This document shows positions 3,555-60,897 of a DNA stretch of 64,000 nucleotides, in pieces. The stretch covers positions 156,205 through 220,204 of the forward strand of contig MFQZ01000001.1 of the NCBI GenBank assembly GCA_001784435.1, in the 5' to 3' direction. The DNA is from Candidatus Magasanikbacteria bacterium RIFOXYC2_FULL_42_28. Its GTDB lineage: Bacteria; Patescibacteriota; Patescibacteriia; Magasanikbacterales; GWA2-37-8. A program made the translations under genes and the position numbers. The notes beneath the pieces were generated by a model. That model was not told where the DNA came from. It saw only the letters and a list, made by a program, of their open reading frames with translations, and did not search any database. Position 1 is the first letter of the stretch. Every line of letters begins with the position of its first letter.

Positions 3555-3672
3555 AATGTCAAATTTCCAATTTCCAATGTCAAACAAAATCCAAAATCCC
3601 AATATCAAATTTGAAATTTTGGCTTTGACATTTGATATTGATTTGAAATTGGAAATTTTGATTTTGAAATTA
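3555..3672. repeat. family A palindromic element abutting start of DMT gene
   Basis: atgtcaaatttccaatttccaatgtcaaa...tttgaaattggaaattttgattttgaaatt. Confidence 0.7.
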
Positions 3673-3710
3673 CCACTATTATTTTACCATATTTTTGACT
3701 TTTAAACAAA

Positions 3711-3739
3711 AAACCATCCCGACTAAGTCGGGATGGTTT
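3711..3739 (-). terminator. intrinsic terminator hairpin aaaccatcccgactaagtcgggatggttt
   Basis: Perfect stem-loop followed by a T-run on the minus strand; the same hairpin type recurs at 6045-6077 and 52765-52798. Confidence 0.6.
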
Positions 3740-3878
3740 CAAATTACTCCTCGGCTCTCTAAAATATTCAACTAATTAAATATTTTAGAGATCGGAGCCG
3801 AGGAGGGAAAGTGTGGCGGCTCGACGATCTCGCGGAAGGGCGAGAGGTGGCCGCTGGGTGGGAGTGGGGAAAGGGGGT

Positions 3879-4262: not shown

Positions 4263-4804
4263 GCTCCCCGCGCGGACTTCTTGTCAAACCTGACTCACAC
4301 CGGACACACTCCGGTATGGTGAGTCATCCTGCACATCTACAACGCCCAAAGCACTGTTATGCTCTCGGCGTTGTAGACGCACACTTGTAAAGAACTATCA
4401 TTATACCCTGCACCAGTCCGCACCATAGGCGGACGATGCAGGGCTAAACAAAACACCCCGCAACATTCGTCGCGGGGTGTGTGTAATTTTTATTTAACTT
4501 TACTTTGTAAAATTATTACACATTACCCCACGTCCAAACGGCAATACCAAAAAGGACAAGACCTTGATGGCCCAGCGTACGCGATTAATAATGTGTAAAT
4601 TATTTTTCATATATATTATATACTCTCATATCTGGAAAATATGTCAATAAAGTTATCCACAGGGCTTCGCCTTCGGCTACGCCCTGTAAACTTGGTTTAC
4701 CCGGCGTAGCGTAGCAAAGCCGGGCCATGTAAACTGGTGATAATATCTTTAAAATCAACTTCTTTGTCTAAATTATTTTGGCTAATTTTAGCCACTTTTA
4801 CCCC

Positions 4805-4833
4805 TTGACAAACTAACCAAAATGTGATACAAT
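4805..4833 (+). promoter_or_regulatory. sigma70-like promoter TTGACA-17-TACAAT upstream of glycosyltransferase
   Basis: ttgacaaactaaccaaaatgtgatacaat. Confidence 0.55.
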
Positions 4834-4882
4834 AACCTGTTTTGATAAATACCCAAGTCGTGGGTAAAAAAGGTCAAAATTT

Positions 4883-21920: not shown

Positions 21921-22376
21921 TTAATTTCCTTTTTTTAGAGGATTGTAATTGCGCTTAACTTCATACCCGTCTTTATAACCATCGCCATCAGTATCGGCAT
22001 TAAGCGGATCGGTTTTCCATACTTCTATTTCAGTTTTGTCCAAAATGCCATCGCCATCAGTATCGGATTTTTTCGGGTCAGTGCCAGATTGTTTTTCTTG
22101 ATCAGCCGTAAGACCGTCTAAATCTTCGTCCGTAATACGAATGTTATCTAATGCTTTATTCAACGCTACCAACTCTTCTTTTCTTTTTTGTTCCGAAGCG
22201 GTTTGACTTAAAGCGCCACCGGTTAATTTTTTACGCAGTGCCAATACTCCAAACACTAATCCGACCACCAACAACAAAACCACAATAACCGCGATAATTA
22301 TATTTAAAATTTTACCAAAAGAACGCGGTGGCGTATTATTGGTTGATGGTATTAAAGTGTCATTCATATACTTCAA
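21921..22376 (-). CDS. thrombospondin type-3-like repeat protein, TM-anchored
   Basis: DTDGDGILDKTEIEVWKTDPLNADTDGDGYKDGYEVKRNYNPL. Confidence 0.55.
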   Translation of the reverse strand: MKYMNDTLIPSTNNTPPRSFGKILNIIIAVIVVLLLVVGLVFGVLALRKKLTGGALSQTASEQKRKEELVALNKALDNIRITDEDLDGLTADQEKQSGTDPKKSDTDGDGILDKTEIEVWKTDPLNADTDGDGYKDGYEVKRNYNPLKKGN

Positions 22377-25300: not shown

Positions 25301-28300
25301 GCCATCATCGCAACTTTCACCCAAATCCAATTTACCATTACCGCATTTTGTTCTGTCCAAACAATCAACTCCACCTTCGGTTTCTTCCCATTTACAATTA
25401 GCCGAACAAGTTTTTAGTGTTCGTGTGCCACCGGTACAAACATTACCATATTCCAACGCCTGTGGCGGGTCGCAATCCTCGCCTAAATTCAAATTTAATT
25501 TCCCGTCTCCGCAAAATCCGGACTGCATGGTGGAAATTTCTTCAGACGCCAGACAAATTCCGGTCGGATCAGATACAAAACGCGAGGTGGTAACAATGAA
25601 TTTAGGAATAAGTGCGTTAAAAGCATAAGACAAACTGTATTCTTTTGGCTCCAACAAATACCTTACCATATAATTGGGCGAGCTGGTAGACACAATATAC
25701 CGGTAAGCCAATGAAGTCGGATCGCAAGCAAAACTAAACCGACGGTCAGCAGTAGAGGTGCCGGTGGTCAGCCAATTGGTGGTGGCATCGTGCAGCAGAC
25801 ATTTGTTGTCGGTAATAGTTGAGTCGCAATCAGTATCAACATGGCAAAATTTGGCGATATTATCGGCCGTATAAGCGCAACTGCCGGCCGGGGCCAAACG
25901 ATTAATCGGGTCGGTCGGCAAACTGCGTCCGGTGGCAGTTCCTAAAACACTCCACGACGGCCAGGTGCTCACAGTTTGGCCGGATAAATATGTGCCTTGG
26001 GGCAATGGCGGATATTTACCGGCATTGGCATCAGCGTAATTGGCCAATGATTTTTCAATCGCGCCCAAACCGCGCAAACGATTATAATTGCGTTTTAGTT
26101 TATCAATTTGGTTGGCGCATTTTTGTTCCGAATGACCGGCGGACGCGCAATCTATATCGGTTCGGCAGGGCACGGAGTCGGGCGATAATACCGGTGGGTC
26201 AACCTCTAAACTATCAACACAATAATTAGTATTGGTTAAGTTGGTATTGAGCGTCAAATTATTCATAAACTGCTCAAACACGTTTTTCATGGTCGCGCCG
26301 GAATTTTTGTTTAAACTGAATAAATAGATATTTGATTTAAGATTCGCGCTTCCGCCCGCAGAATAATTCAGCGCTTCCACATAAACATTGTTGCCATCAG
26401 ACACGGCGTCATAACCGCCAACTTTTAGATCGCGGAAATTATTGACGTTAAAATCCTTACCGCCGCTTTGTTTGTTACCGGCGAGCCAGTCGCGCGGGCT
26501 TAAGAAATATTGATTGGAGAATACCGAAATACCAACGGCGTCTGATACACCGCGAGAGTTGGTGTCGGTAAAAATAAAGCGTTTGAGAAGTTGGGGTTGA
26601 GCGATACAGACTGGATCTTCAAAATTTAACGATGGGTAAATTAAATTGGAACATATCGTACTATCGTAATCACTCGGGATTGTATCCTTCCAAACTTTAA
26701 AACCGTCGTCGTCATCACAACTATCCTGATTGGTGCACGATAAAGGAGAATTATTTTTATCTAAATAATATAAGGCGGCAGAATCATACGCCGGCGCTTT
26801 GGCAACCCGACATATTTTAGTGGAATATTTTGAGTAGAAAACACTGCGAGTGGTAGTAACAGTAAATTTAGCGTTACACTGCTCATCTGCCGCTACACCC
26901 AAATCACATTCCTCGCCCGTAAAACTACACGCCCCTTTTGCCACTTCCAACTGCGCCGTGCTCGTCTGCACTGCCGCGCGCAAATACGGCAAATCATCAC
27001 CTCTGCCGGAGACACCGGAATCAGCGCAATAGTAAGTGCGGAAATTATAATAACCGCTGGTGTTAGTTTCTTCTACAGTCGACGGGTCAATAGACGAACC
27101 ATCAAACGCGTCGGTCGCCAAATTAAAGCCATCGTCATTATTTAATTTATCTTCATACGGGAAAATCCGCGCGCCATTTGAAGGCAAATCTTTGGGTGGC
27201 CAAGGATTTTCGCACAAAAATACAATCGCGTGCGCTTGGCCGGTCGCCACCGGACCCCTGCGGGCGGTATATTGATTAGCAACGACATTGGCCGTGGCAT
27301 AAACATCAATTTCGCCATTTTTATTCAAGGCCTTTAAAATATTGTCGCCGTTAGCAACAGACGCCGAAGTGGTTGCCGGGGCAAACTCAACAAACGGATT
27401 GGACACGCTCGGAGCCGGCCCCCAGATATAATCCCAAGCGTAAAAATTAGCAATGGGCGCAATAATTTGATTGCCGCGCGAAGCGTCGGTGCGAGCGGTA
27501 ACGTGCATCGTGGTAGTGGCGTTGGCGCGCGCAAAATACACTTCCGTGGGTGACAAAGAGATGTTTTCCACCTCACATATTTCATTTCCGGTTTCAAAAC
27601 TCCACCTGATAACCGCGCCAATACTGACTCCACGCGTGTCTTTAAGGCCATTTTTTAAAATTATGGTATAATCGGCGTCAGCGGAAAGAGGCCGATTTAA
27701 ATTCACTTTCAAAGTAGAAGTGGAAAATAGTTTGGTGTCAGGATCAAATTCATTATTTACTTCAACCGCGCCGGTATCACCACCCACGCACCAAACATCA
27801 GCCGAAGCGGTTTGACGACCAAACAAATTATTGAACCAAGCCAAAGCGCGTTTTAATAATCGTTTGGGCCAAGATAGTTGTTGATTTTCAAACGCTACCA
27901 CTAGTTCGGTTACATCTTCACCGCCGGTGTAACAGGTGCTGGTAGCCAAAAGTTGACGCGCGATTAAGAAATTACCGGTAATGCTATTTTTGTCAATTGG
28001 GTGGTCAAAGCTGGCGGAAATGGAAGTGTTTAAACAGACATCGTCGGCATCATCAAGCGGATAGTTAGCGGTTTTTTGTGGTCGGGCGTAGCAACAAGAA
28101 TTATTGCCCACGCCATAAGTGTTATCATTCGGCAAACCAGCGACACTCACGCACTCATCATCATTTTGATAACCGCATTTGATTTCAAATCTACCACTAT
28201 CGGTTTTGGCTGTGCCACTGCCACCAGCGGTATTTTGGTTAGTAGTAGCGCTAATAAGAGCCACTTGCGCCACGCCAGCACCCACCGCGTTAGTGCCGGT

Positions 28301-31300
28301 CGCGCCCATACCCACGCCTTTGGCTAAAACCCACGGATCAAAACGATATAAACCGGTGGTAGTAGCCGCGCGACTGTATTTTATAAAATCAGTACTGGTG
28401 GTACTTTCACAATAATCCACTTCGCCCGTGCCGGTTATACCGTCGCCACACACTGATGGATTGGAATATGACAAAGACGAGCCCAAAGGACGGTAATCGC
28501 TGATATTACAACCTTCTTCCCCGAAAACACACGCGCCTGCATATAATGGTTTAGTAGCAAAATCCCAGCCATCGGTAGAATAAAGCGAAACTTTGTAATC
28601 TACCATTTGACAATATTTATTACACGGCTTGGGATAAACATCTTCATCAAGAAAAGACGCCTCGCACTCCGGATCTTCATCCGCGCTCGTCACCCCATCG
28701 CCACATTGGCTATAAGACACATTTTTATAAAAATCATAAGTGGTGGTGGCGAATCCGGCCGGACGCTCGTTGCCCGGTTGTTGGAACCAGTAATTGGTCA
28801 TGCGCGTACCGGTGTGGAGACATTGAGCCGAGCAGTTGCGACTACTTGTGGTCATCAAAATATCATCAGGTGGTATCGCTACATCGCACTCCTCGCCCAC
28901 CGTCACTTTACGGTCTCCACAAACCGACGCGTTAACATTGTTGGCTTTGGGCTCGGCCGTGGAACCGGTCCACAAACAGTTGAACGCGTTACAATTTACT
29001 CTTTTGGTAATATCAGCACTCCCCGGGTCGCATTCTTCGCCTTTGGTTGATGAAACAAAACTATCACCACACAAACCAATATCAACAGTGCTGGTTGTAT
29101 TCGTGGTATTAGTATTCCCACTATACAAACAAGTCAAAGTACACCCGCCCGTCGCGCTCGGTAGATCGCAATCTTCACCCGCTTCTACTGTGCCATTACC
29201 ACAAGCAATAAACCGGTCTACCGCCCCACTTGTTGTCGTGGCAAACGGCACATCACTTCCCTTGCGCACACAGCGATCGGTACAATTTTTGTTTTGGCCC
29301 AAAGTGCGAAATGGCGTAACTGTCGCCACATCAGTATCCGATGATTGCCAATTCCAACCGACATCATAGGCGTTCAAACGCTGGCCTTGGGCGCTACAAG
29401 CGTCCGGCGCTGAATAGGGCGTGGCAAAATAAAACGATTTGTCGGTTATGCGGCGCGTGCTAAATACTTCAGGCGCGACATCTACCCGATCAATTAAACA
29501 GGCCTGGTCTTTGGTGCGGAATTTCCAAGTTAAATTTTTGTTAAACGGTTTGCTGTAAGAGCTCGGACTAAAAATATTACCCAGCGACCATAAAACATCC
29601 GGCGCTGTGGCAGGAGAAGATAATTCACCCGGGTATTCATTGGAAATGGAAACGACATAATACTTGGACTGTTCTAAATCTGTTTCCGGCGTTAAAATTA
29701 TCAATGACTTATCCGGCTGATTTTTAACATCCGCCAATGTTACCGGTTCGGTAGTAAAACAATTAACATCATTGCATTTATCCAAACGCACCGCCCCGTT
29801 CTCCTTATCCAAATTGGCCGTGCTCATACTGATATTAAATTTCACGCCAATTTCCGCGCTCGGACAGGCCTCAAAACACTGCGGCCAATAATCAACCACT
29901 TTCGGATCGGATAGATCAATCGTGAGTGTGCTCGTGCCGGTTTTGGTTTTGGTAACACTGGCGGTATTAGTGGTAGCATCGGCAAAAATATTCACGGCAT
30001 TAAGCGGGTTGGTCAAATTCACGCCCACGGTATTTTGCAAAGCGGACACTTGTGCCTTATCCATCGTGGTCGTACCGACGATATTGGAATACGCGATATT
30101 ACCTGACCGCCAATTCCAGCCGTAGCCGGAAACATCCATCATAATACAACGGTCTGTGCTCAAACCATTACCGCGATAAAATAAATCGTATTCACGACCA
30201 GAAGCTGTGCGGCCGATTAACAATTCTTCCAAATGGTTGGTCCAATATTCGTACGGCGTTACGATCACTTTTTCTAATTCGCACTGTCTACCGGTTGGGT
30301 CAGTGTGGAACGCAAAACAATAAGCCGTGCCGTCGCCACAAGGTCGGTCGGCAATTATTGGAGTGGAACTTGCCCCCGTGCCATTGGCGCGAATATTGTT
30401 ATATAATTTTACTTGATACCAGGTATTAGGTATCCAATGGCCGGTGTTGTGGTTGTAGGTACTTGTTGGTCTTAAAGATAGGTAGGCGTGCTGGGAATTA
30501 GCACCACTCTGACTTGATACACCGGGCAAAAGCACGCCTCGGCTATCACCGGTATTAACAACCGATACCTTGGTCGGCGCCACTCCGGTTGTTAAACAAT
30601 TTTGTTGAACAGCATCAATACCGCCCGTACATTCCAAAACAACAAGCGCGTTCAGGTCGGTTCCGGGCACGTTAGTATTTATTAAATTAATATCAGCGCG
30701 CGAAAATTCAATGGAGATTAAAGCCCCACGACAAACATTTTCTTGCGGATCACCGCCACCTTGGCGCCATAGCAAACTGGGCGAGGGCGATGGCAATGCC
30801 AAACCGGCCATAACACTCGCGTCACACCGCTCCACTACGCGCAATGGCTCGGGAATACCGGCGGTGGAAAATCGCCACATATAACCGGTGGAAAGAGTGT
30901 CATTTTTGCATCGAAGATTGCCGGCAATACAAACCCCGGGCTGACCGGTATCGCGACCACAACATTGTTCGGTATCTTTATTACAAGCATTGGTATTTTC
31001 TAAACAATTTTGGACGGTAAAATCAACCTGATTACTTACTTTATTATCAGACGCGCGCCTCACTTCTATCGCCCCGGAAACAGTGCCTTCAACTGGCGAC
31101 ACCTTTATTTCATTATCGGTAATAGCTAATTTTTCCGCCACCTTGTTTCTGGAAAAAAATATTGTAGTTGAAATACCGACTGTGTCATCATCAGACAAAA
31201 AATGATCACCGAAAATTTTCAAACCGTCTTCGTCCGGATAAGGAATGGGACCGGAATAATTACTTAAAGCGCAAATACCGGGCGCCGGTTCACCGCCAAC

Positions 31301-34084
31301 AAATTCAAAATAATCATTATTTAAATCAATACTGGAAACATTACGGTTATTTGGTTTAACTTGCACGGAATATTTTTGATTGAGAGACAGACCGGAGGGA
31401 ATTTTTATCAATATTTTTTCATTAGTCCAAGTATCACCGCAATTATCACCAATATAAACCTGGCCATTTGCCACCACCGCGCCGTCGCCATCTTTTCTAA
31501 ACCAAACAACGCCCGGGCTTTCGCCAAAATTCCGACCGGTGATAAATACATATTCATTGGTAGCGCCTGCGCGCGGAGAAATGCCGGTAATTACCACATC
31601 GCTGTTTTCACTTTCTGGCACCTCGGAGCCGGATTTTACAGTGAAACGAATACTATTGCTCTCGGCATTGTCAAGATGGCGTTTTATTTTTACGCCAACC
31701 GCGCCACTGCCCAATTGTGGTACTACGGCCCATAAATTATCCGCAAACCAATTAGTGCCTGATTTCATCGCCGCCACTGTTTCGCCAAAATATATTTCAC
31801 CACCATTAACACCAAAATGATTACCCTCTAAATAAACATCACTTCCCGGAGTGGAACTGCTGGGAGCAATTCTACACAAACCCGGCCGTGAACTGGTATT
31901 AACAATAAAATCCAAATCCAATCCCCAATTGTCTTTAATTAAATCAAGATTATTATCGGTAATATCGGTTCTGCTACTACCGGCGCGACCGTCAACAGCC
32001 GCCTCTACTTTAATTGGGCCACTTTGCGCGTCTGTTGGGACTTGGGCAATGATTTGATTGTCCGTCCAAGTGCGTTTGGGATCGCAGGGTAATTGGGCTT
32101 CTTGCCAGACAATCGGTCCCCCACCAATTTTTTGCATGTTAAAATCATCCAAATAAACGGTGGCGGTGCGAACGGACGCGTATTGATCCAATCCCCACTT
32201 AAAATATAGTTTATTAGTATCATTTTGGCCATGATTTTTTAAAACGTATTCATACTTACGCCAACCACTACTCAAAGGAAAACCGAGCACGCAATCGCTG
32301 TTGCGACTGCCGACACATTCCCCAGTGTTCGCCACTCTTTGTTCGGTAAAATTATAAATTTTGCCACCGTCAAAAGAAATTGTTAAAAACAACTGTGCTC
32401 CAACCGTTGGACTGTACGCGTATACTGAACCAAGATAACTTTCACTTGATTTAATATTTTCAATTGGCGCGGACCACAAATACACCCAGCCATCTGAAAC
32501 GTTTTTATCAATTTTAATCATTTTTTCACCGGTATGAGCCAAGGACGAATTGAGATTTGTTCTGGTGGCTTTCCCAGCTGAAAAAGCTTGGCTGACTGAA
32601 AAACTATTATTTAAAGGACCATCCGCGTACAAACTGGGATTACCATTTATATTACTGACAAAATAAACCTTCCCCGGCTCGCTCCCAAAATATCGCCCAT
32701 TAATGGAAACATAATTCCCCGGCGCGCCGTTGTTAGGATCAAGTCCGCGAATTTCCAAACGTCTTTCGCACACACCGGAACCACTGACGGAAACAGCGCA
32801 AAAACCGGTACAGCAATCAGAATTTTTGGAACAACTATTGCCGGCGACGCACTGCGCTTCTTCCAAACGCAAATCTATCTGCCTACTCACTTCCGCGGTA
32901 AAAGCGGCCCAATCCGTGCCCAAAACACGCAAGTTATAATTGCCAACACGCCAGCCGGATGTCTTCCAAGTAAGGGTAAAAGAGTCCGTTTTTTTACACT
33001 CGGTAAAAGTTTCGTCGTCTTGCGAATACCGGCTATCGCCAACATATAACAACGCGTTTTGCAAACCAAAATCATCATTATAAGTTACGTTTACGGAAAC
33101 ATCCTCACCCCGAAACGCCGAATCCGGCGCGGATATGGTTATGGTTGGCGCTGTTCTATCCACACCCGAACCGGCGGTGAAATCCACCGGCCCACACCCC
33201 TCACCATCGCTACAACTTAAATTTTTGGCTTCATTTTGAGTCGGGTAACCGGCGCGCGTCTTGATACCGTCCGACCGACCACCCGGCAACATCAATTCAT
33301 ATTTACCACCGGCGTCAAAACAGTCGTCCGCCCCGGCATCGCCACAATCACCATTAGGCGTAAACTTAACGGCGGTATCGTTGGTGTCGGCAACATAACT
33401 CCAAACTCCCTCTACCTTTTCCGATGTTGAAACAACATATACAATCCTAAAGGAGCTATTATTTAAAGAATCCAAATTAGGCGGTTCGGAAAATACCACC
33501 ACCGGGTGATAGTTACGGATACAAACATCTCCATTTGGCGGTAATAGTTCAACTTGAAATTCCCGTTTAGGATCGCAACCGGCCGGATTGGGACAGCCAT
33601 TTGGGCCGTCTTCGCCACATTCGCCACCGCGGTCTACCGGACCTTCCCCTTCACGAAATTCACCCGATTCCGGTTCTCGCACGCCATTATAACAATGCGC
33701 TGGCAAAAATCCGGTCGCTCTTGCTAAACTTTTAATAACAAAACTGGTAATGGCAAAAGCGGACAAAATTATTACCAGACCAATTAAGGAATTTTTAATC
33801 AATGTTTTGGCTTCGGTAACTTTTTCTTCGTTCCCGCCGGCCGTCATCCAAATAAACCCGGCGTATAACATCAAACATAAAACTATTATCCCCAAAAACC
33901 CAAGCACGGCGCGAATAATTTTGGCAATCACCAATCGGATATCCGTGCTACCCAAACCAATGGTCTCCCCTATTTCGGCAATCCCCAAATCCTGCGCCCA
34001 CACAGTGGAAGCAAAAAATAAACCGCCAAACAAAAGCGTTAGGACAAATGATGCGATGAATAATTTTTTGGGATTCCTCGGCAT
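22373..34084 (-). CDS. giant (3903 aa) secreted/surface protein: VirB2/TrbC-pilin-like N-terminal module + Ig-like/LamG-like domains + many Cys-rich CGDG...EECD repeats
   Basis: Single uninterrupted ORF. N-terminus has a signal peptide and two hydrophobic helices joined by TAGGNEEKV. The CxxCGDGxxxxGEECD class (myxo-type disulfide repeat) occurs at least 10 times. A LamG/concanavalin-like segment lies near the middle. Confidence 0.85.
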   Translation of the reverse strand: MPRNPKKLFIASFVLTLLFGGLFFASTVWAQDLGIAEIGETIGLGSTDIRLVIAKIIRAVLGFLGIIVLCLMLYAGFIWMTAGGNEEKVTEAKTLIKNSLIGLVIILSAFAITSFVIKSLARATGFLPAHCYNGVREPESGEFREGEGPVDRGGECGEDGPNGCPNPAGCDPKREFQVELLPPNGDVCIRNYHPVVVFSEPPNLDSLNNSSFRIVYVVSTSEKVEGVWSYVADTNDTAVKFTPNGDCGDAGADDCFDAGGKYELMLPGGRSDGIKTRAGYPTQNEAKNLSCSDGEGCGPVDFTAGSGVDRTAPTITISAPDSAFRGEDVSVNVTYNDDFGLQNALLYVGDSRYSQDDETFTECKKTDSFTLTWKTSGWRVGNYNLRVLGTDWAAFTAEVSRQIDLRLEEAQCVAGNSCSKNSDCCTGFCAVSVSGSGVCERRLEIRGLDPNNGAPGNYVSINGRYFGSEPGKVYFVSNINGNPSLYADGPLNNSFSVSQAFSAGKATRTNLNSSLAHTGEKMIKIDKNVSDGWVYLWSAPIENIKSSESYLGSVYAYSPTVGAQLFLTISFDGGKIYNFTEQRVANTGECVGSRNSDCVLGFPLSSGWRKYEYVLKNHGQNDTNKLYFKWGLDQYASVRTATVYLDDFNMQKIGGGPIVWQEAQLPCDPKRTWTDNQIIAQVPTDAQSGPIKVEAAVDGRAGSSRTDITDNNLDLIKDNWGLDLDFIVNTSSRPGLCRIAPSSSTPGSDVYLEGNHFGVNGGEIYFGETVAAMKSGTNWFADNLWAVVPQLGSGAVGVKIKRHLDNAESNSIRFTVKSGSEVPESENSDVVITGISPRAGATNEYVFITGRNFGESPGVVWFRKDGDGAVVANGQVYIGDNCGDTWTNEKILIKIPSGLSLNQKYSVQVKPNNRNVSSIDLNNDYFEFVGGEPAPGICALSNYSGPIPYPDEDGLKIFGDHFLSDDDTVGISTTIFFSRNKVAEKLAITDNEIKVSPVEGTVSGAIEVRRASDNKVSNQVDFTVQNCLENTNACNKDTEQCCGRDTGQPGVCIAGNLRCKNDTLSTGYMWRFSTAGIPEPLRVVERCDASVMAGLALPSPSPSLLWRQGGGDPQENVCRGALISIEFSRADINLINTNVPGTDLNALVVLECTGGIDAVQQNCLTTGVAPTKVSVVNTGDSRGVLLPGVSSQSGANSQHAYLSLRPTSTYNHNTGHWIPNTWYQVKLYNNIRANGTGASSTPIIADRPCGDGTAYCFAFHTDPTGRQCELEKVIVTPYEYWTNHLEELLIGRTASGREYDLFYRGNGLSTDRCIMMDVSGYGWNWRSGNIAYSNIVGTTTMDKAQVSALQNTVGVNLTNPLNAVNIFADATTNTASVTKTKTGTSTLTIDLSDPKVVDYWPQCFEACPSAEIGVKFNISMSTANLDKENGAVRLDKCNDVNCFTTEPVTLADVKNQPDKSLIILTPETDLEQSKYYVVSISNEYPGELSSPATAPDVLWSLGNIFSPSSYSKPFNKNLTWKFRTKDQACLIDRVDVAPEVFSTRRITDKSFYFATPYSAPDACSAQGQRLNAYDVGWNWQSSDTDVATVTPFRTLGQNKNCTDRCVRKGSDVPFATTTSGAVDRFIACGNGTVEAGEDCDLPSATGGCTLTCLYSGNTNTTNTTSTVDIGLCGDSFVSSTKGEECDPGSADITKRVNCNAFNCLWTGSTAEPKANNVNASVCGDRKVTVGEECDVAIPPDDILMTTSSRNCSAQCLHTGTRMTNYWFQQPGNERPAGFATTTYDFYKNVSYSQCGDGVTSADEDPECEASFLDEDVYPKPCNKYCQMVDYKVSLYSTDGWDFATKPLYAGACVFGEEGCNISDYRPLGSSLSYSNPSVCGDGITGTGEVDYCESTTSTDFIKYSRAATTTGLYRFDPWVLAKGVGMGATGTNAVGAGVAQVALISATTNQNTAGGSGTAKTDSGRFEIKCGYQNDDECVSVAGLPNDNTYGVGNNSCCYARPQKTANYPLDDADDVCLNTSISASFDHPIDKNSITGNFLIARQLLATSTCYTGGEDVTELVVAFENQQLSWPKRLLKRALAWFNNLFGRQTASADVWCVGGDTGAVEVNNEFDPDTKLFSTSTLKVNLNRPLSADADYTIILKNGLKDTRGVSIGAVIRWSFETGNEICEVENISLSPTEVYFARANATTTMHVTARTDASRGNQIIAPIANFYAWDYIWGPAPSVSNPFVEFAPATTSASVANGDNILKALNKNGEIDVYATANVVANQYTARRGPVATGQAHAIVFLCENPWPPKDLPSNGARIFPYEDKLNNDDGFNLATDAFDGSSIDPSTVEETNTSGYYNFRTYYCADSGVSGRGDDLPYLRAAVQTSTAQLEVAKGACSFTGEECDLGVAADEQCNAKFTVTTTRSVFYSKYSTKICRVAKAPAYDSAALYYLDKNNSPLSCTNQDSCDDDDGFKVWKDTIPSDYDSTICSNLIYPSLNFEDPVCIAQPQLLKRFIFTDTNSRGVSDAVGISVFSNQYFLSPRDWLAGNKQSGGKDFNVNNFRDLKVGGYDAVSDGNNVYVEALNYSAGGSANLKSNIYLFSLNKNSGATMKNVFEQFMNNLTLNTNLTNTNYCVDSLEVDPPVLSPDSVPCRTDIDCASAGHSEQKCANQIDKLKRNYNRLRGLGAIEKSLANYADANAGKYPPLPQGTYLSGQTVSTWPSWSVLGTATGRSLPTDPINRLAPAGSCAYTADNIAKFCHVDTDCDSTITDNKCLLHDATTNWLTTGTSTADRRFSFACDPTSLAYRYIVSTSSPNYMVRYLLEPKEYSLSYAFNALIPKFIVTTSRFVSDPTGICLASEEISTMQSGFCGDGKLNLNLGEDCDPPQALEYGNVCTGGTRTLKTCSANCKWEETEGGVDCLDRTKCGNGKLDLGESCDDGVLNGRYGKCNNTCEATSTLYCGNGALDEPYEFCDTVSSKCAYATGAGVSTPSPYACSVYAMSNSYSCKSDCSGFGSYCGDGVIDASQGEECDGEPVCSVGGSSGVRNCLSCRKVSALAEWGMDNLAGLSPGSRPASGGAIRYVYPFSGDKFNLHKIFSVINVSSTATGDFPQYPQVVSDGKIGGAFKNSYNKRLFLYTSSTLPNYSGFEITGTSSISLWINPDDHPWDSVNVHRFNTIIEKGGMDTNNCGFTLRRDISNNDLLFYAMGAISSTYSARCSVADNYERQPGGGARFAGSPDPLTISGAAPPNTWTHLVVVNNSASARVYVNGVLKITTSKPLNNLTDCGNYSFGADNWYGSAINYVNIVGGYTHSDHTHPYSGSTASGSGCLTSSGAIEGDWMIPKQDWYFYYGKMDELKYFDRALSTPEVKDLFDSYRDLGGWMCTASTTPNSGPVAPTGCGNGHVESETEACDNSQVNAVTGALIYNNNGQTCRPGYNRPCTYCSADCRNVIRKEASGWCGDGVINTSSPERCENVGINTYSSVTGTNIYGTITDDVNGYHVYRCDQLVAPLNVSTSYWANLIYQTNLEQYTPRQIGDRKCNSSCSEIQDNCVACGKDNTNGVAVSGNIINVIEPSSIDPIYDYLYAGTSHSGLLELFYSKPTVNYSQSSTISLAQMLRVGIDSPTASSYALREGGNGIGSVKVNSDLRCSIKDDNLAAYYLTVNGYRAFVTNTPNAPIRRKFFPVRADSTPADFDLLLSPRINASSTQQKGHIRVVLSWVGDASKQLSAGFVTAINGGNTVVAKEGTDFNSAIGRSYFTETGSNFLKQGIWYHGITTTASGLNMESFTINTNAMGANPFIFYVRTDDDSAINYYRNNGGVKVEVYEPDFDTNIDYASDSRFSFPVRTFELKDARQLSALDLDYDPAIDDNPNASAWHVFNIKSLYPNPVASAEVSLEENLNYIRSSRNYLRFSY

Positions 34085-39057: not shown

Positions 39058-40657
<1,600 letters not shown>

Positions 40658-41164
40658 AAAAAAAGTTCAATTAAGAACTATCAGAGAAGAGTGAAAAAAA
40701 TTCACTCTGCTAGATTTGAATCTCTTTTGACTGCTAAAGCCAAAAAGAGTTCTGGATTTATTCTGTATGTACGTCTTTCATTGTTTGTACTCAACAAACA
40801 ACTAAGACAATGTTTAGAGAAATAGATTTTGTGATTTTTGTCACGATTTGTATTGTCAACGAACACTGCTTCGCTACGCTACGCAGTGCAAGCATCTACT
40901 TGGACACGTTGCGCAGTGTAAACTTTCTTTCTTTTTACAGAAAGAAAAAAGAGGAACCAAAAATTTCAGTTACTCTTTTTTCTTTCCAGTATCCTATCTA
41001 CCTAACATTCCAAACAACAGCTTTTGGACTTAGAAGAAATCAATTGTTATAAAGTACTTGGTTGCCTTGATTTGTATTAAGCAAACGCAGTTTAACATAT
41101 TGTCAGAAACCTGTCAAGGGGTGGTTTGGGGTAAGGTGGGGATAAAAAAACCTTGATGTGTAGA

Positions 41165-41194
41165 TTGACACCTTATCATAATTTACTGTAATAT
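41165..41194 (+). promoter_or_regulatory. sigma70-like promoter TTGACA-18-TAATAT for the island 2 ORF
   Basis: ttgacaccttatcataatttactgtaatat, then RBS ggagagaaaaATG. Confidence 0.5.
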
Positions 41195-41234
41195 TATAAG
41201 TAACAGGTGGCAAAAAGTCGCCGAGGAGAGAAAA

Positions 41235-41528
41235 ATGGTCGCAGTCAGTATTACGATCATTGTCAACGACAAATGGAAATGGGAAGTTCGCAAACTGTTT
41301 GCGAAGAAAGGCGCAAACGGAGCAGGTGGGCACACGAGTGTCACCCGCAACGACAAACGAGAATTTGAAGTTCGTGTCGTAGGGGCGTACGATCAATCGC
41401 TGGGCACTTGCCCGGTGACCGAAACAACGGCCCCAACCCTCGCTCTGGCCCTGCGCCAGGTTCCACCTGATTTCCGGCGGGAAATAAAATCCCATCTGGC
41501 GCGCGTTCGTTGCGCCATGAAGAAGTGA
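41235..41528 (+). CDS. hypothetical 97-aa protein in GC-rich island 2
   Basis: ATG with a good RBS, own promoter, terminator hairpin at 41641-41672; the 3' two-thirds of the ORF and the downstream 100 bp are strongly GC-rich. Confidence 0.4.
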   Translation: MVAVSITIIVNDKWKWEVRKLFAKKGANGAGGHTSVTRNDKREFEVRVVGAYDQSLGTCPVTETTAPTLALALRQVPPDFRREIKSHLARVRCAMKK

Positions 41529-41640
41529 CCACCCGTCCCGCCCCCACCGCCCTCGAGCAACCCGCCCACCTCCGCCCCGGGTCTGCTCACAATGTTCAGA
41601 AATATTTTTGTGAATATTGTGAGACCCAGGTGCGAGTATT

Positions 41641-41672
41641 ACTAAAAAAGTTCTCTATCCAGAGAACTTTTT
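41641..41672. terminator. bidirectional terminator aaaaaagttctctatccagagaacttttttg
   Basis: Perfect hairpin flanked by an A-run and a T-run. Confidence 0.65.
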
Positions 41673-41677
41673 TGATT

Positions 41678-42373
41678 TCATTTTTTTCGCCACTCCGCTA
41701 TTTTTTTATGGTCGCCAGACAGCAGCACTTTTGGTACTTTTAATCCTAAAAAATTATCCGGGCGAGTATAAAGAATTTCAGATTTTTGAAATTTTGATTT
41801 TGGATTTGATTTGACATTGGAAATTGGAAATTTGTCATTAAACGTCTCATTACTTAACGACTCCTGATTCCCCAACACCCCCGGTATTAATCGGGAAGTC
41901 GCCTCCACCACTGCCAACGCTGGCAATTCCCCACCTGATAAAACATAATCCCCGACTGAAACTTTTTCATCTACAAATTTATACACACGCTCGTCAAATC
42001 CTTGGTAGCGCCCGGAAATTAAAATTAGACGGTCTAGTTTAGAAAATTTCTTGGCCATGGTTTGGTCGAATTTTTTTCCTGCAGGATCTAGTGCGATAAT
42101 TTTCAATTTACAATTTTCAATTTTCAATTTCTTGCCACCACGCGCTAACCCCAAACTCTCCAAACAATAATAAATTGGATCCACTTTCAAAACCATTCCT
42201 GCTCCCCCGCCATATTGCGTGTCATCCACCGGCTGGTGTTTTCCAACCGCAAACTCGCGCCAATTATGAGCGATGATTTTTATTAAATTTTTCTTTTGGG
42301 CGATGCCTAAGATACTATCATTGGAGTAGTGATAGATTAGGTCGGGGAAAATTGTAAGGATATCAAATTGCAT
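41678..42373 (-). CDS. trmD: tRNA (guanine37-N1)-methyltransferase
   Basis: ...LISGRYQGFDERV..., SVGDYVLSGGELPALAVVEA. Start moved to MQFDILTIFP; MEIGYLDFEI in the track is repeat A. Confidence 0.9.
   Translation of the reverse strand: MQFDILTIFPDLIYHYSNDSILGIAQKKNLIKIIAHNWREFAVGKHQPVDDTQYGGGAGMVLKVDPIYYCLESLGLARGGKKLKIENCKLKIIALDPAGKKFDQTMAKKFSKLDRLILISGRYQGFDERVYKFVDEKVSVGDYVLSGGELPALAVVEATSRLIPGVLGNQESLSNETFNDKFPISNVKSNPKSKFQKSEILYTRPDNFLGLKVPKVLLSGDHKKIAEWRKK
41778..41840. repeat. family A element (partial) downstream of trmD
   Basis: tttgaaattttgattttggatttgatttgacattggaaattggaaatttgtcatt. Confidence 0.55.
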
Positions 42374-42394
42374 AATCGCACGAACAAAATTTTT

Positions 42395-42512
42395 AATTTC
42401 AAAATCCAAATATCCAATTTCCAATCAAATCCAAATTTCAGATGTTAAATGTCAAATTTGATATTTTTATTTTGACATTGATTTGACATTGGAAATTGGA
42501 AATTTGACATTA
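42395..42512. repeat. family A element abutting trmD start
   Basis: aatccaaatatccaatttccaatcaaatccaaatttcag...ttttgacattgatttgacattggaaattggaaatttgacatt. Confidence 0.7.
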
Positions 42513-42588: not shown

Positions 42589-42936
42589 CTAGATGCCTAA
42601 ATCGTCAATCGCACTGGTGTCAACCGGCGCGGAGACGACAACTGGCGTGGCTTGCGCCATACCCATGCCACCCATACGCGGACCGCGGCCACCTTCCGGC
42701 TCATTGATTTTCAAGTTGACGCGAGCATTATTTTTCGCGCCGACAATCTTCAATAAAGTGCGGATGGAACGAGCGGTTTGACCAGAACGGCCGATAACAT
42801 AACCCATGTCGGACGGATCAACGTCCAAGGAAATCAAGACACCACGTTCATCGATGATCCGAGAGGTCTTAACTTTGTCCGGGTTGTTAACGATCGCTTT
42901 GACGAGCATCTCAACAAACAGTTGGTCAGCTTCCAT
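42589..42936 (-). CDS. KH-domain RNA-binding protein (YlqC-like) of the rpsP-trmD operon
   Basis: GYVIGRSGQTARSIRTLLK KH motif; conserved operon position. Confidence 0.75.
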   Translation of the reverse strand: MEADQLFVEMLVKAIVNNPDKVKTSRIIDERGVLISLDVDPSDMGYVIGRSGQTARSIRTLLKIVGAKNNARVNLKINEPEGGRGPRMGGMGMAQATPVVVSAPVDTSAIDDLGI

Positions 42937-43016: not shown

Positions 43017-43544
43017 TTATACCGTTTCGGTCGGGGCGGTGTCAACAGCCGGAGTTTCGGTTTTCACTTCTTCTGCCTTCACTTCCTCAGCTGGCTTTTC
43101 AGCCGCGGCTTTTTCTTCCGCCGCTTTTGCCTCTGCTTCCGCTTTGGCCGCTTCTTTCGCCGCCGCCTTGGCTTCTGCTTCCGCTACTACTTTTGCTTCG
43201 GCGTCAGCTTTCGCTTTTGCGTCGGCTTCTTGCTTGGCCTTATCTTTCGCGCCTAATTTTACTTTTCTTTCTTTGGATAAAAATACCACTTTCTTTTTCG
43301 CGCCACTGACCAAACCGGTTTTCACAAATAAATTGTGGAGTGTGGCCGAGGCCTGCGCGCCTTTGCCTAACCAATATTTCACCCGTTCCGCGTCAACAAG
43401 CAAGCCATTTTCTTTAGCGTGCGGATTGAATGTGCCTAATTTTTCCAAATAAGTACCTTTGGTGTCGCGCGCTTTTTCGGAAATAATCACGCGGTAAGTC
43501 GGCGCTTTGGTTTTGCCGACGCGTTGTAAACGAATCATTAACAT
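43017..43544 (-). CDS. rpsP: 30S ribosomal protein S16 with long Lys/Ala/Glu-rich C-terminal extension
   Basis: MLMIRLQRVGKTKAPTYRVII...; the C-terminal 80 aa are low-complexity KAEA repeats. Confidence 0.9.
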   Translation of the reverse strand: MLMIRLQRVGKTKAPTYRVIISEKARDTKGTYLEKLGTFNPHAKENGLLVDAERVKYWLGKGAQASATLHNLFVKTGLVSGAKKKVVFLSKERKVKLGAKDKAKQEADAKAKADAEAKVVAEAEAKAAAKEAAKAEAEAKAAEEKAAAEKPAEEVKAEEVKTETPAVDTAPTETV

Positions 43545-44051: not shown

Positions 44052-47000
44052 TTAGGCCGGCACCCTCACATCCTCCAACTTCACACTCAACAACTTTGAC
44101 ACACCTTCGCCACCCATAGTAACACCGTACAAAACATCCGCGCCGTGCATCGTAACACGATTATGCGTAATCACGATAAATTGTGATTGGCGCGAAAGTT
44201 CGCTCATGATATTGGCAAAGCGCAAAGTGTTGGCTTCGTCTAACGCGGCTTCTACTTCGTCCATTACAACGAACGGCGCTGGGTTGCAGGACAAAATCGC
44301 ACAGACGAGCGCGATCGATGTAAGTGTGCGTTCACCGCCGGATAACGCGCTTAGATTTTTTATTTTTTTACCGGGTGGGCAGGCGGTAATATCAATCCCA
44401 GTTAACGTAGTAATTTTTTTACGTTTAGATTCGTCAGCCAAACCGTCCGCTCCCACCCCCTCTGCTTCTCCCCCTCGGGCAGGGGGAGACATGCCAATGC
44501 CCGCCACCGCACCCTCCAACTCTGCGTCCTCATCAAGCACCTCACCATAAATTTCTTCCAAAGCCGCGCTCCCACCATTAAATAAAATTTTGAAATAACG
44601 ATCAAATTCTTTGCGAATTTTTTTGAAAGATGCTTCGCGTTTCTTCTTCATTACTTCAGTTAATTCTTCAATCATTTTTTCTAAATCTGCTGTTGCTTTA
44701 TCTAAATCTGATAATTGCGCGGACAAGAAATCAAATTTTTCTTTGGTCGTAGCGTGTTCTTCAACCACACCTTCTTCAATACCACCAATTAAACTTAATT
44801 GATATTTTAATTTCTGAATTTCATCGGCGGTCACGGCCAACCCAGCACTATCCAACGCCTCAACAATCCGCTCCGACAAAGTCGCAGGTGAAGCGGAAAT
44901 TTCATTGCCCGCCTCGGCCATTAAGTCCTCGCGCTTGGTTTCTAATTTCGCCAATTGAATTTTCAAATCATTGCGCGAATTGATAATTGTGTTCACCGCT
45001 ACCTGCGCTTTCTGCATTTCATCTTGCAGATGAAACACGCGTTGTTTTTTCTCTTCTTCTTTATTATTAAAATCTTGAATTTCGCGGGAGGCACTCACAA
45101 CTAATTTTTCCGCGTCCGCAATATTTTTTTCAATCAAACTTTTTTCTTTACCCAAACCACCCAAATATTTACTATGCTCTTCCGGACTCATCTGGATAAA
45201 ATTTCTTTCTTTTTCCAAATCTGTTAATTCCAATAATTTCTGACGCACTTGCGTGCCCACAACCGCACTTTCAGCTTTGTATTTTTCCATTTCCGCGCGG
45301 CTAAACAAAATTTCACCGCGTTTTTCTTCTAACCGTTTTTCCACAATTCGCAAATCTTCGCGTAATCTTTCAACAACTTTTTGCGGATCATCACCACCCG
45401 CTTCCGGCGCTAACCATTTACCCGAAAATCCCGGGCCCCGACGATTACCTTTGCGATAACCACCACGCATCACGCCTTTACGCTCAATCACATCGCCGTC
45501 CAAAGTAACCATCCGAAATCGCCCAATTCCAATTCTCTGCGCTGTTTCCAAATTTTCTACCAACAAATTATCTCCCAAAACAAAGGAAAAAATTTCACGA
45601 AAACGATTATCGAATTTAATTAAATCAATTGCCCAACCGATTACACCCGCCTGCCCCAAAACATCATCTGTTTCTTGCCCCAACTCGCGCCCGCGGATTT
45701 TATTCATTGGCAAAAATGTCGCCACACCCATTCGCTCAGCGCGCAAAAATTGAATTGCGTTTTTTGCAGTCTCATCATCGCCTACAACAAGCGAAGACAA
45801 ATGTGAACCAGCTGCGACTTCCAAAGCCAAACGATATTCTTCATTCACCTCGCCCAATTCCGACAACATTCCATATACCTTGCCCAATCGCGAGCGATTA
45901 TCCAACACTGCCTTCACCGCCGACAACCCGCTCATTTCAAAATATTGACGTTCGGATTGCGCTTGATAGGTTTGGTGTTCAGCTTGTGATAATTTGACCG
46001 TTAATTCCGTGCGTTCAATTGATAAATTCTCTACTTCCCGATCTTTTTCCGCGATTATTCCATTCAATCGCGTCAACGCTAAATCCGCTTGCGCCTGACC
46101 AGTCTCCAAAACCGAACTTTCATTTTTTAAATCTAAAATCTTTTTTTCCAACCAGCCCAAATTTTGTTTACCGGCATCTGAATACGCGGTCTGTAATTTC
46201 CCAGACAAAATCGCCAACGATCTTTCAAAATCATTTTTTACTGCCATCGCTTGCTGATGTTTTTGTTGTAATTCCGCAAACACTTCCGCGCGCGTTGCCA
46301 ATTGCGCTATCTGCGATAACTCATTTTGAATATTCGTTAAATTTTCAAACGCGGTGCGATATTCTTTTTCAATTTTATTTAATTGCGTGTCCAATAAATC
46401 TGTTTCTTTTTTATTGATCAAATACAACGATCCATAATATTTTTCTTGACACTCACGCAAAGCCAATTCCACTTCCTGACGTTTTTCTAATTTTTTAACT
46501 TGACGCGATAATAATTTTAAACGCGGTTCAATTTCGGCGAGTAGTCGTGTCGCCTGTTCAGAATTTTCACGCGTGCGCGCCAATTTCAAAGACGCTTGGT
46601 GTTCTTTAATTTGAAATTCTTTAATTCCCGATGCTTCGTCTAAAAAATCTTTACGTTCGGATGGTGTCACCACCAAAAGCCGATCAATCGTGCCCTGCGA
46701 AATAATACTATATGAATGTTGCCCAAATTGGGCGCGCGCCAAAAGCAAATGAATGTCAAGCAAACGCACCGGACTATTATTTATCAAATATTCACCTTCG
46801 CCCGAGCGATACAACCGACGCGTGATAACAATCTCCGGATAATCAATGCCAAACCCACTGCCGGTATTATCCAAAACCATCGTCACCGAACATGCCGACA
46901 ACGCCCCTTTGTCAACCGAGCCATTAAAAATTACATCTTCACTTTTTTTCCCGCGCAATTGTTTCAGCGAGGTCTCACCCATCACCCACCGAATCGCGTC

Positions 47001-47990: not shown

Positions 47991-48606
47991 TTTAATAAAT
48001 CGTTTGACTGGTGAATATTTAAAACTGTCGTATTATACCACAATCTAAAAATACTGGCAAAAATTCGCTTGAAGGACATTTTTCACATATCAACGAAATT
48101 ATTGCTGTGCATAGAGGACTATCTCGCCCTCAAAAACAAAAAGTTCTAAATACAATTTTCCTAGCGTCATCGATCGCCCCAACCAAAGGCAAACTTAGGC
48201 ATATTCTGTGAAATTAGGTACCCGTTTATGTACCTTATGCCGAAATATGCGTTGCGTCTTCCAGAACACCACCCGTTGAATACTCTTCGGGTTGAATAGA
48301 ATTTGAAGAAGTTATCTCCCTAACACCACGCACCGAGTATCTTCATTTTTAGTCACTTTATTTTTACTCTGCGACAAGCAGTAGCCGGTCACACTTTGAA
48401 AAATAAAATGGCGAGATTTTACACGCCCAAACCTTGGCCGGAGCGTTTTGGTAAAATCTAAATTTAGTATACCAAAATATTTATTAAAACAGAAGACCCC
48501 CGCTCGGACATCCACCTATTTAAGGGTGAACGCCGAGCGAGGGTCACGAGGGACCAAGTAGCCGAGCACTTGCCAAAAGAGCCAAGTGCCCGAGCGTCCA
48601 AGCCCC

Positions 48607-49191
48607 TTACTCGCGACAGGCGAACCGAGCGCCGCCGCGCCAGTCGCAGCCGAGCCAGCTGAAACGGAGCACCCAGCGGTCGCCGTGCCAGCGGAGGCAG
48701 GCCACGCGCCGGAGGCCGTCGGAATCGCACAGAACCGTGCCAGCGAGGGGGATGTAGAATCCCCGGAACTCGGCCGACAACTTGTCCTGCTCGGCCAGGA
48801 TCCGCTGGCCGTCGGCGAGGCCGAGATTGGCCCCCATGCTCACCGCGCGGCGACGCATCTCGTCGCCGGCGATGCCCGACTCCCCAGCCTTGAGGAAGGC
48901 GCGGGGACGGAGCGACGCCACGTCGAACTGCGACGCGACGACGTCCTCCACCACCGTCCAGTCGGTGGGGACGAGGCCGGTGGCGAGGGCCGGAGACTTC
49001 ACGCCGACGACCAGCGTCTTGACGCCGGCCCAGAACTCCTTGGAAGTAAGGACGTTCTGCACGTCCTCAATGTTGAACTCGAGCGACTTGAACAAGCCGC
49101 CCATCAACTTCGCAAATTCGCGAAGCTGGCCAGACGTGAACCGTTTCGCGGCCATCGTCTTGCTCCTTGCCATGCAGTTTGCCTTTGCCAA
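48607..49191 (-). CDS. hypothetical protein in GC-rich island 3 (Cys/Trp-rich C-terminus)
   Basis: Own promoter on the minus strand, TTGACA-18-TTATAT (plus about 49230-49259). Strongly GC-rich; the plus-strand ORF 48586..49251 is the alternative frame. Confidence 0.4.
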   Translation of the reverse strand: MAKANCMARSKTMAAKRFTSGQLREFAKLMGGLFKSLEFNIEDVQNVLTSKEFWAGVKTLVVGVKSPALATGLVPTDWTVVEDVVASQFDVASLRPRAFLKAGESGIAGDEMRRRAVSMGANLGLADGQRILAEQDKLSAEFRGFYIPLAGTVLCDSDGLRRVACLRWHGDRWVLRFSWLGCDWRGGARFACRE

Positions 49192-49314
49192 GCGATATGC
49201 TCGGTTGGGGTTTACCGCGAACTATGTGTATATAAGCATAAATTTAGGTAAATGTCAATATTAAAAAATAAAAACACCGCGCGAATATGGCGAAGCGTTT
49301 AAAAATGATTACCC

Positions 49315-60773: not shown

Positions 60774-60813
60774 ATATTTATTGCTTATGCGTTCTTAAAC
60801 TATTGAGTCGTCG

Positions 60814-60897
60814 TGCGCGGGAGAGGACTCGAACCTCCATGCCCTTGCGAGCGTTACCACCTCAAGGTAGTGCGTCTACCAGTTTCGCCACCCGCGC
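60814..60897 (-). tRNA. tRNA-Leu (anticodon GAG), long variable arm
   Basis: Reverse complement gcgcgggtggcgaaactggtagacgcactaccttgaggtggtaacgctcgcaagggcatggaggttcgagtcctctcccgcgca; 7-bp acceptor stem, 3-bp D stem. Confidence 0.8.

Follow-up and report, generated by a model that had tools for sequence, protein, structure and literature searches.

How did a GC-rich segment with a single 97-codon open reading frame (ORF) come to lie between trmD and the 16S rRNA gene of a groundwater bacterium of the candidate phyla radiation (CPR)? The segment, referred to here as island 2, occupies positions 41146-41677 of the window, i.e., the 64,000-nucleotide stretch of contig MFQZ01000001.1 from Candidatus Magasanikbacteria bacterium RIFOXYC2_FULL_42_28. 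With moderate confidence, and judging from its sequence, we interpret it as a horizontally acquired, moron-like single-gene cassette, inserted at a trmD/16S-box site that small selfish or accessory genes reuse in Magasanikbacteria. In kind, it is an ordinary strain-specific acquisition of a known sort, namely, an ORFan cassette gained horizontally at an integration hotspot.

A preliminary description of the window had reported a GC-rich island at this place, and the base composition bears this out. When composition was ranked over 160 bins (window mean, 44.3% GC), the bin at 41201-41600 reached 57.3% GC, compared with 35.0% and 37.5% in the adjacent bins. It thereby fell within the top 4 of the 160 bins, and comparable values were found only at two other islands, located at ~3800-4400 and 48400-49200 (islands 1 and 3). 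The ORF product is identical to hypothetical protein A3J93_01470 of Candidatus Magasanikbacteria bacterium RIFOXYC2_FULL_42. Since ENA, JGI, and Logan assemblies, made independently, contain the same island sequence with the same junctions (100% identity across 10.3 kb; a single mismatch in 5.3 kb), island 2 did not arise as a chimera during assembly.

The junction between trmD and the 16S rRNA promoter

One genome per species was scanned with the trmD protein, which yielded 80 loci, the closest of which were 58 to 65% identical. Together with two contigs carrying homologues of island 3, these made up 82 fetched loci (L004 to L027 denote trmD loci of relatives; L084 and L085 denote the island 3 homologue loci). 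Among the 15 closest relatives, 13 had the 16S rRNA gene behind trmD in the same orientation; with L004, in which the 16S gene starts at the contig end, 14 relatives share the arrangement in total. In the window, trmD (tRNA m1G37 methyltransferase, PF01746; 41678-42370) and the 16S rRNA gene (39059-40663) are both encoded on the minus strand, and 1,014 bp separate the trmD stop codon from the 16S 5' end. The corresponding distance was 318 to 572 bp in L005, L006, L007, L011, L014, and L018, and these six short spacers had a GC content of 32 to 36% and contained no convincing ORF.

An alignment of this region (A1) revealed a common order of elements in the relatives: trmD, a TTATCCACA box, ~20 nt, a TTGACA promoter, a leader hairpin (GATACTGGAAAGAGAAAAGAG...TTCCTCTTTTTTCTTTC), a TTGACAACACAAATGTGACAAA element, and the 16S gene. 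Of the six relatives in A1, five carry TTGACA at the position to which this hexamer of the window aligns. In L005, L007, L011, and L018, the box was located ~20 to 30 nt from the conserved end of trmD, and in L005 the TAA stop codon of trmD even overlaps it. The window retains every downstream element of A1, and ~530 extra bases (41146-41677) part trmD from the box. As the six short spacers are free of genes and trmD ends close to the box in four of these relatives, the whole unit is an insertion, comprising the island promoter, the ORF, both hairpins, and the terminator. The check on conservation proposed in the preliminary description gave a clear result: the 97-aa ORF was found at this position in none of the 14 relatives sharing the trmD-16S arrangement. 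Like a genomic islet, island 2 thus lies between conserved flanks in one lineage and is missing in syntenic relatives, as the six empty spacers attest.

The same junction carries other cargo elsewhere. In L004, a RelB and YafQ/RelE toxin-antitoxin (TA) pair is present at this site (4188-4930); on its flanks, 42 nt of the trmD 3' end are directly duplicated (35 of 42 positions identical), and the TTATCCACA box occurs a second time. These duplications suggest that cassettes may integrate at the trmD/16S-promoter junction in a site-specific or homology-driven manner. L025 carries a HicB/HicA TA pair. A conserved protein of ~195 aa, read by eye as an HD-domain protein, is encoded in L008 and L021, a GC-rich adenylosuccinate-synthetase-like gene in L020, and a 429-aa membrane-like protein in L027, the latter two likewise assigned by eye. 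GC-rich ORFans devoid of Pfam domains are found in L010 and L021, and an apparently decayed small gene is found in L009. Pfam scans of this cargo covered the TA proteins and the two ORFans, and the genes of L008, L021, L020, and L027 were read from their translations. Since unrelated cargo resides at the same spot in eight other relatives, the trmD-16S junction is an insertion hotspot. The inserts of L009 and L010 converge on trmD, each with a hairpin beside the trmD stop codon (A/T flanked on both sides in L010), and in L005, L007, L011, and L018 the gap from trmD to the box is too short to accommodate a hairpin. Because the hairpin accompanies convergent inserts and is lacking in insert-free loci, the terminator travels, or is co-selected, with the inserted gene.

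One could also imagine that the gene was born de novo by expansion of the local trmD-16S spacer, without any foreign DNA. The ORFan status of the gene and the host-like composition of its 5' part would fit such an origin, as would an internal duplication (41264-41290 versus 41348-41374, 81% identical), which shows local sequence growth. Nothing in the relatives' empty, AT-rich spacers is alignable with the island, however, and island 2 has stretches of 62 to 80% GC, a Shine-Dalgarno (SD) site that departs from host usage, and a full terminator module. Moreover, ready-made genes have repeatedly arrived at the same site in relatives. We therefore give a de novo origin only a very slight chance.

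On the rRNA side of island 2, the 16S rRNA P1 promoter (41089-41117, minus strand) reads TTGACA-17-TAAACT with an extended TG. The adjoining box TTATCCCCA (41137-41145, minus strand) differs by one mismatch from the TTATCCACA box of the relatives, which corresponds to the DnaA-box consensus. This box was kept ~19 to 20 nt upstream of the 16S -35 hexamer in 9 of 10 relatives examined, being present in L004 (4231 and 4922), L005, L007, L009, L010 (where it is doubled), L011, L014, L018, and L021. Its conservation suggests that DnaA or another factor may regulate rRNA transcription in Magasanikbacteria. As the cumulative GC skew declines steadily over the window, the region of the box is not an origin of replication. 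In the window, the box is located 19 nt from each -35 hexamer of two divergent promoters, i.e., P1 and the putative promoter of the inserted ORF, so that a factor bound there could affect both. By this back-to-back arrangement around a DnaA-box-like motif, a foreign gene may be wired to growth-rate control. On the opposite side, the KH-domain gene (42589-42936) and rpsP (43017-43544) precede trmD, and all three genes are located on the minus strand and directed toward the 16S gene.

The ORF and its Shine-Dalgarno site

For the inserted unit, the preliminary description had listed a 97-aa ORF with a TTGACA-18-TAATAT promoter, a ribosome-binding site, and a bidirectional terminator. All of these were present within 1 to 2 nt, and by pattern matching they make up a small self-contained transcription unit beside the 16S promoter, with a single ORF enclosed by its own promoter and terminator as in genomic islets. 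The putative sigma-70-type promoter (41165-41194, plus strand) is divergent from P1 and matches the consensus at 10 of 12 positions (TTGACA at 41165-41170, an 18-nt spacer, and TAATAT at 41189-41194). An SD sequence, GAGGAGAG (41223-41230, plus strand), is located 4 nt upstream of the ATG start codon of the ORF (41235-41528, plus strand), which is convergent with trmD. A bidirectional intrinsic terminator follows at 41643-41674, common to the ORF on the plus strand and trmD on the minus strand. It consists of a perfect 13-bp stem (41644-41656/41661-41673) with a 4-nt loop, preceded by A6 and followed by T6, so that a 13- to 14-bp stem with a T6 run is found on each strand. Predicted folding energies were -14.9 kcal/mol (plus) and -13.7 kcal/mol (minus), and none of 200 shuffled sequences folded as well, although the stem holds merely 3 G-C pairs. 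With the trmD stop codon (41678) 4 nt away, the terminator serves trmD as much as the ORF.

The SD site sets this ORF apart from the genes of its host. Only 1 of 45 long host ORFs was preceded by GGAG, GAGG, or AGGA at positions -18 to -5, and this single case has a doubtful TTG start within a repeat; host ATG starts are preceded by A/T-rich leaders. The 3' end of the host 16S rRNA gene nevertheless retains CCTCCT, i.e., an intact CCUCCU anti-SD. Reduced use of SD and anti-SD sequences has been described for part of the Parcubacteria (PMC9297842). The ORFs of all three islands, in contrast, are led by an SD (3 of 3 versus 1 of 45 host ORFs); the probability that all three fall by chance among the 4 SD genes of 48 is 4/17296, or ~2e-4 (hypergeometric). 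A scan of the entire window for GGAG followed within 4 to 9 nt by a start codon and at least 50 codons returned matches that were nearly all inside long host ORFs, and the only free-standing ORFs with GGAG before their own start were the three island ORFs, at 4235, 41235, and 49155. This contrast is the strongest evidence that the islands may be recent imports in which donor-type signals were kept. It is also the strongest evidence that the plus-strand ORF of island 2 probably is, or recently was, a real gene. More generally, the presence of an SD in an SD-less genome provides a simple and sharp marker of recent gene acquisition, which may help to find horizontal transfer in CPR bacteria.

What the gene encodes was approached by homology searches and structure prediction. 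The 97-aa protein found only itself in an index of 5.8 billion proteins. When 1.84 billion representatives were searched exhaustively with phmmer, it matched itself and one further sequence, which was judged spurious, as a low-complexity match of 13 to 17 residues had been summed over eight tandem repeats. No match was obtained in Pfam, PHROGs, PADLOC, NCBIfam, or PDB sequences, and the predicted model yielded no fold match. Neither tblastn against the 82 fetched loci in any frame nor searches of JGI metagenome contigs and IMG/VR returned a homologue, and a blastn donor search among phages and plasmids found nothing. The other frames and strands of the GC-rich part likewise had no Pfam match and no tblastn match in the 82 loci. 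The protein is basic (pI 10.2; 18 K+R versus 9 D+E) and contains an in-frame internal repeat, NDKWKWEVR/NDKREFEVR, 84 nt apart. A single-sequence AlphaFold2 (AF2) model gave a beta-beta-beta-alpha-alpha topology with a mean pLDDT (per-residue confidence) of 61.4 and a pTM (global fold confidence) of 0.51, as opposed to 40.9 and 0.30 for the 130-aa antisense ORF used as a control. By inference, the gene encodes a soluble beta/alpha protein of small size and basic charge. A HicB-like identity, considered because of the segment LGTCPVTETT..LALAL and the beta-beta-beta-alpha topology, was dropped, as it had no support in Pfam and no BLASTP similarity to the HicB of L025. In view of the small size and the charge of the protein and of the TA modules that relatives carry at the same junction, a putative accessory nucleic-acid-binding or addiction/defense-type role is most likely and represents our best guess.

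The same properties have to be weighed against the possibility that island 2 is a dead remnant, i.e., a decayed piece of a larger foreign insertion, in which the 97-codon ORF would be a chance or chimeric frame that is no longer, or never was, functional. The GC content of the ORF by codon position (0.60/0.47/0.57) exceeds that of host genes at all three positions and lacks the peak at third positions (GC3) seen in islands 1 and 3. Composition is heterogeneous (AT rich toward the 5' end and GC rich toward the 3' end), the antisense strand is also open for 130 codons, the protein is without any homologue, and L009 seems to hold a decayed small gene at the very same site. Against decay speak the strong SD with ideal spacing to the first ATG in an otherwise SD-less genome, and the completeness of the unit with promoter, ORF, and terminator. 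In addition, a codon model trained on the host scored the annotated frame best (-0.04 bits/codon versus -0.18 to -0.68 in the other frames), and AF2 confidence was clearly above that of the antisense control. On balance, we regard a dead remnant as unlikely, though it deserves to be kept in mind.

Several observations count against an interpretation as an acquired functional cassette. The case for horizontal transfer is built solely on composition, the SD site, and the lack of island 2 in relatives, and searches for a donor or homologue elsewhere (protein, phage, plasmid, viral, and metagenome) found none. The islet-like deviation in composition goes along with the SD site, but GC3 is only moderately raised (0.57, compared with 0.82 in island 1 and 0.88 in island 3), and the first 22 codons are host-like. 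All copies of island 2 are identical, and selection on the ORF is thus unmeasurable. A 97-codon ORF in DNA of 57% GC is not improbable by chance, an ORF of 130 codons is open on the antisense strand as well, and the predicted confidence of the AF2 model is moderate only. The promoter match, taken alone, adds little weight in AT-rich DNA, where 8 promoter-like matches were found versus 4.1 expected in this region. Finally, the ends of island 2 showed no significant target duplication or terminal repeats (p ~0.07), and no integrase or mobile-element gene turned up when nine neighboring ORFs were compared with Pfam, a comparison that was not an integrase-directed search.

If the cassette interpretation holds, expression of the gene can be pictured as follows. 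The ORF would be transcribed from the TTGACA-18-TAATAT promoter, divergently from P1, and translated via pairing of its SD with the intact CCUCCU anti-SD of the host. Transcription would end in the region downstream of the stop codon, at a C-rich tract (a possible Rho entry site), a hairpin, and the bidirectional terminator, the last of which would also shield the cassette from trmD read-through.

The 3' region, the other islands, and the mini-inserts

The stop codon is immediately followed by a C-rich, G-poor tract of 57 nt (41529-41585, plus strand) with 35 C and 11 G. Rho utilization (rut) sites are C-rich, G-poor, unstructured RNA segments of about 60 to 80 nt, located 3' of the stop codon. 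In a test of composition and structure only, the tract was 61% C and 19% G, and its centroid structure was unpaired (z = +1.1). Scanning both strands of the window for C-rich/G-poor tracts of 55 nt revealed that the two longest are those after the ORFs of islands 1 and 2, next to four short marginal matches elsewhere. The strand opposite the tract contains a canonical G-quadruplex motif (41532-41552, minus strand), and the only other such motif in the window lies opposite the C-tract of island 1. A long hairpin follows (41579-41627, plus strand; -25.7 kcal/mol, z = -6.4), in which a palindromic, AT-rich apex tops a GC base (GGGTC/GACCC). Stop-codon readthrough into the tract, which codes for proline and whose frame remains open for 38 codons past the TGA, was considered and dismissed, because stops are rare in C-rich DNA and trmD here ends in TGA as well, at a position that fits its homologues.

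In AT-rich genomes, GC-rich islands often represent RNA genes, and a structured noncoding RNA would suit a GC-rich patch in an AT-rich intergenic setting beside the rRNA operon. The region as a whole indeed folds better than shuffled sequences (z = -6.0 on the plus strand and -5.2 on the minus strand). However, this signal comes wholly from the two 3' hairpins, as 41235-41582 alone gave z = -0.8 and -0.9. There was no Rfam match at gathering thresholds or at E values up to 5, and homologous copies in which covariation could show are lacking. An RNA gene was therefore rejected, with hardly any probability left to it.

Island 1 (3696-4262, minus strand) encodes a 118-aa ORFan that matched only itself. 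Downstream of its ORF, a C-rich tract, a hairpin of -33 kcal/mol with an AT-rich apex, and an intrinsic terminator are present. Islands 1 and 2 thus have a layout in common, consisting of an SD-led ORF, a C-rich/G-poor tract, a long hairpin with an AATATT palindrome, and an intrinsic terminator. When only the two hairpins were compared, none of 2,000 shuffles reached their score, but the alignment was weak and the comparison had been picked post hoc; for the entire 3' regions, 6% of shuffles did so. A metagenome scan with the hairpin consensus of islands 1 and 2 returned random AT-rich matches only, none with an upstream C-tract or GC-rich ORF. At the level of a class, what all three islands share is a GC-rich, single, stand-alone, SD-led ORF in an SD-less genome.

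It is conceivable, if distinctly improbable, that islands 1 and 2, and perhaps the ORFans of L010 and L021, belong to an undescribed class of mobile single-gene cassettes from a GC-richer donor, residing in intergenic hotspots of SD-less CPR genomes. The signature of such a class would be the SD-led ORF followed by the C-rich tract, the long AATATT-type palindromic hairpin, and the intrinsic terminator. The tract would be rut-like on the mRNA and G-quadruplex forming on the other strand, the 3' module might act as a recombination or insulation element, and the genes would derive from a GC-richer partner organism or its phages.

The preliminary description had gone further and proposed that the islands are related to two mini-inserts in coding genes, on the grounds of a motif in the 3' flank of island 2. 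Such a family of mobile elements with shared ends would unite the islands with G-rich in-frame inserts in an Elp3-like radical-SAM gene (9441-9482, plus strand) and in SMC (44449-44486, minus strand). The two inserts are clearly alike: both contain a CCCCC-TGCCCGAG-GGGGG hairpin followed by GAGGGGG..GGTGGGAGC, and their Smith-Waterman alignment score was reached by none of 2,000 shuffles. A regular-expression search for C(4-6)-TGCCCGAG-G(4-6) matched only at 9441-9464, at 44470-44486, and at 3706-3726 of L004, inside trmD. The occurrence in Elp3-like, in SMC, and in trmD of the closest relative (L004) suggests that the mini-insert may be a small mobile element that tolerates coding regions.

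For island 2, the motif CGAGGGCGGTGGGGGCGGG itself is present (41537-41555, minus strand) and, with up to 3 mismatches allowed, occurs nowhere else in the window, but its resemblance to the Elp3 and SMC inserts turned out to be mostly a matter of G-rich composition. Composition-preserving shuffles equaled the score of the G-rich flank against the Elp3 insert in 38% of cases and against the SMC insert in 2.4%; the latter value, which places the SMC comparison above 97.6% of shuffles, is marginal and uncorrected for multiple tests. A pattern chosen post hoc, GGGNGGTGGGRGC, occurred three times versus 0.34 expected, exactly at the Elp3, SMC, and island 2 places, and the similar 3' layout and hairpins of islands 1 and 2 likewise fit a common family. 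An enrichment of GGTGGGAG (7 versus 1 expected) was mostly due to Gly-Gly-Ser codons within host genes. However, blastn-short matched none of the three islands to one another, nor island 2 to either insert, the mini-insert hairpin was not found in island 2 by the regular-expression scan, and the comparison of the entire 3' regions of islands 1 and 2 was not exceptional. The alignment of termini called for in the preliminary description was also carried out and revealed no shared ends, and island 3 proved to be something separate, with its own conserved noncoding region. We read the likeness of island 2 to the mini-inserts as a compositional resemblance; a single family of islands and inserts appears very doubtful and is largely refuted at the level of primary sequence.

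For island 3 (gene at 48230-49155, minus strand), four homologues of the ORF were found on short groundwater contigs. At homologous loci, a template repeat is located downstream, and the differences from the gene 3' end fall on template adenines in 15 of 18 cases (L085) and 15 of 23 cases (L084). Compared with the L084 template, the gene of the window differs at 27 positions, 18 of which are template adenines. Owing to this adenine bias, island 3 is identified as the target gene of a diversity-generating retroelement (DGR), whose mechanism has been described (PMC3240598) and which is known from CPR bacteria (PMC8144416). The noncoding stretch downstream of island 3 is, by eye, near-identical to that of L084, and the likeness ends where the template repeat would begin. 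Neither a template repeat nor the reverse transcriptase motif YxDD was found in the window (YxDD motif scan of ORFs of at least 150 aa), and island 3 looks like an orphaned or decayed DGR target.

Independently of the islands, an AT-rich repeat, ATTTGACATTGGAAATTGGAAATTTGACATT, occurs with variants in intergenic DNA at 42392-42512 and 3560-3670 and in frame within trmD at 41785-41842. In trmD, it adds ~20 residues (KFPISNVKSNPKSKFQKSEI) that are absent in L005 and L011 and longer in L004. Elsewhere in the window, a single ORF of 3,903 codons spans 22373-34084 (minus strand), and a 731-aa product encoded beside it has weak Pfam matches to T4SS-pilin and Big_5. At 60813-60897 (minus strand), ARAGORN predicted an 85-nt tRNA with an abnormal anticodon loop, to which no identity was assigned (Rfam tRNA score, 47 bits).

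Comparison with known systems

The trmD-16S promoter junction emerges as a recurrent insertion hotspot in Magasanikbacteria, which has received TA pairs, unrelated genes, and ORFans. Island 2 alone amounts to one more strain-specific orphan gene and does not open long-standing questions. It differs from typical bacterial ORFans, which are AT-rich, in being GC-rich.

Like an integron cassette, island 2 consists of a small single ORF followed by an imperfect palindrome. Unlike integron cassettes, its ORF has a promoter of its own, and no array is visible in the window; the R''/R' core of attC sites (GTTRRRY), read by eye, is not in the hairpin at 41579-41627. With in-frame palindromic mini-inserts, as represented by the Rickettsia palindromic elements, it has a G-rich motif in common, GAGGG(C)GGTGGG(A/G)GC being present in both the SMC insert and the island 2 flank. 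In contrast to them, it is intergenic, ten times longer, and gene bearing, and it has no CCCCC-TGCCCGAG-GGGGG hairpin. The AT-rich in-frame repeat of trmD is itself reminiscent of the Rickettsia elements. The DGR target gene of island 3 resembles island 2 in that both are single GC-rich ORFs led by an SD within one AT-rich genome, whereas the sequence of island 2 is not repeated elsewhere in the window, and it has no variable repeat/template repeat (VR/TR) pair and no homologues, and neither YxDD nor a template repeat was found in the window.

Closer in setting are the type II TA cassettes of L004 (RelB-YafQ/RelE) and L025 (HicB-HicA), which, as small units that are complete in themselves and move horizontally, occupy the very same trmD-16S site. 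Island 2 differs from these in that it carries a single gene, matches nothing in Pfam, PADLOC, or NCBIfam, is not similar to the L025 HicB by BLASTP, and lacks a target duplication such as the 42-nt one of the L004 cassette. The closest likeness in overall design is to phage morons, a concept associated with Hendrix and colleagues, and to genomic islets. Island 2 is distinct from phage morons in its location, which is the chromosome of a CPR bacterium and not a prophage. In common with morons and islets, it consists of one extra ORF of deviant composition, placed with its own promoter and terminator between conserved neighbors, missing in relatives, and found at a site that is reused by other cargo from lineage to lineage.

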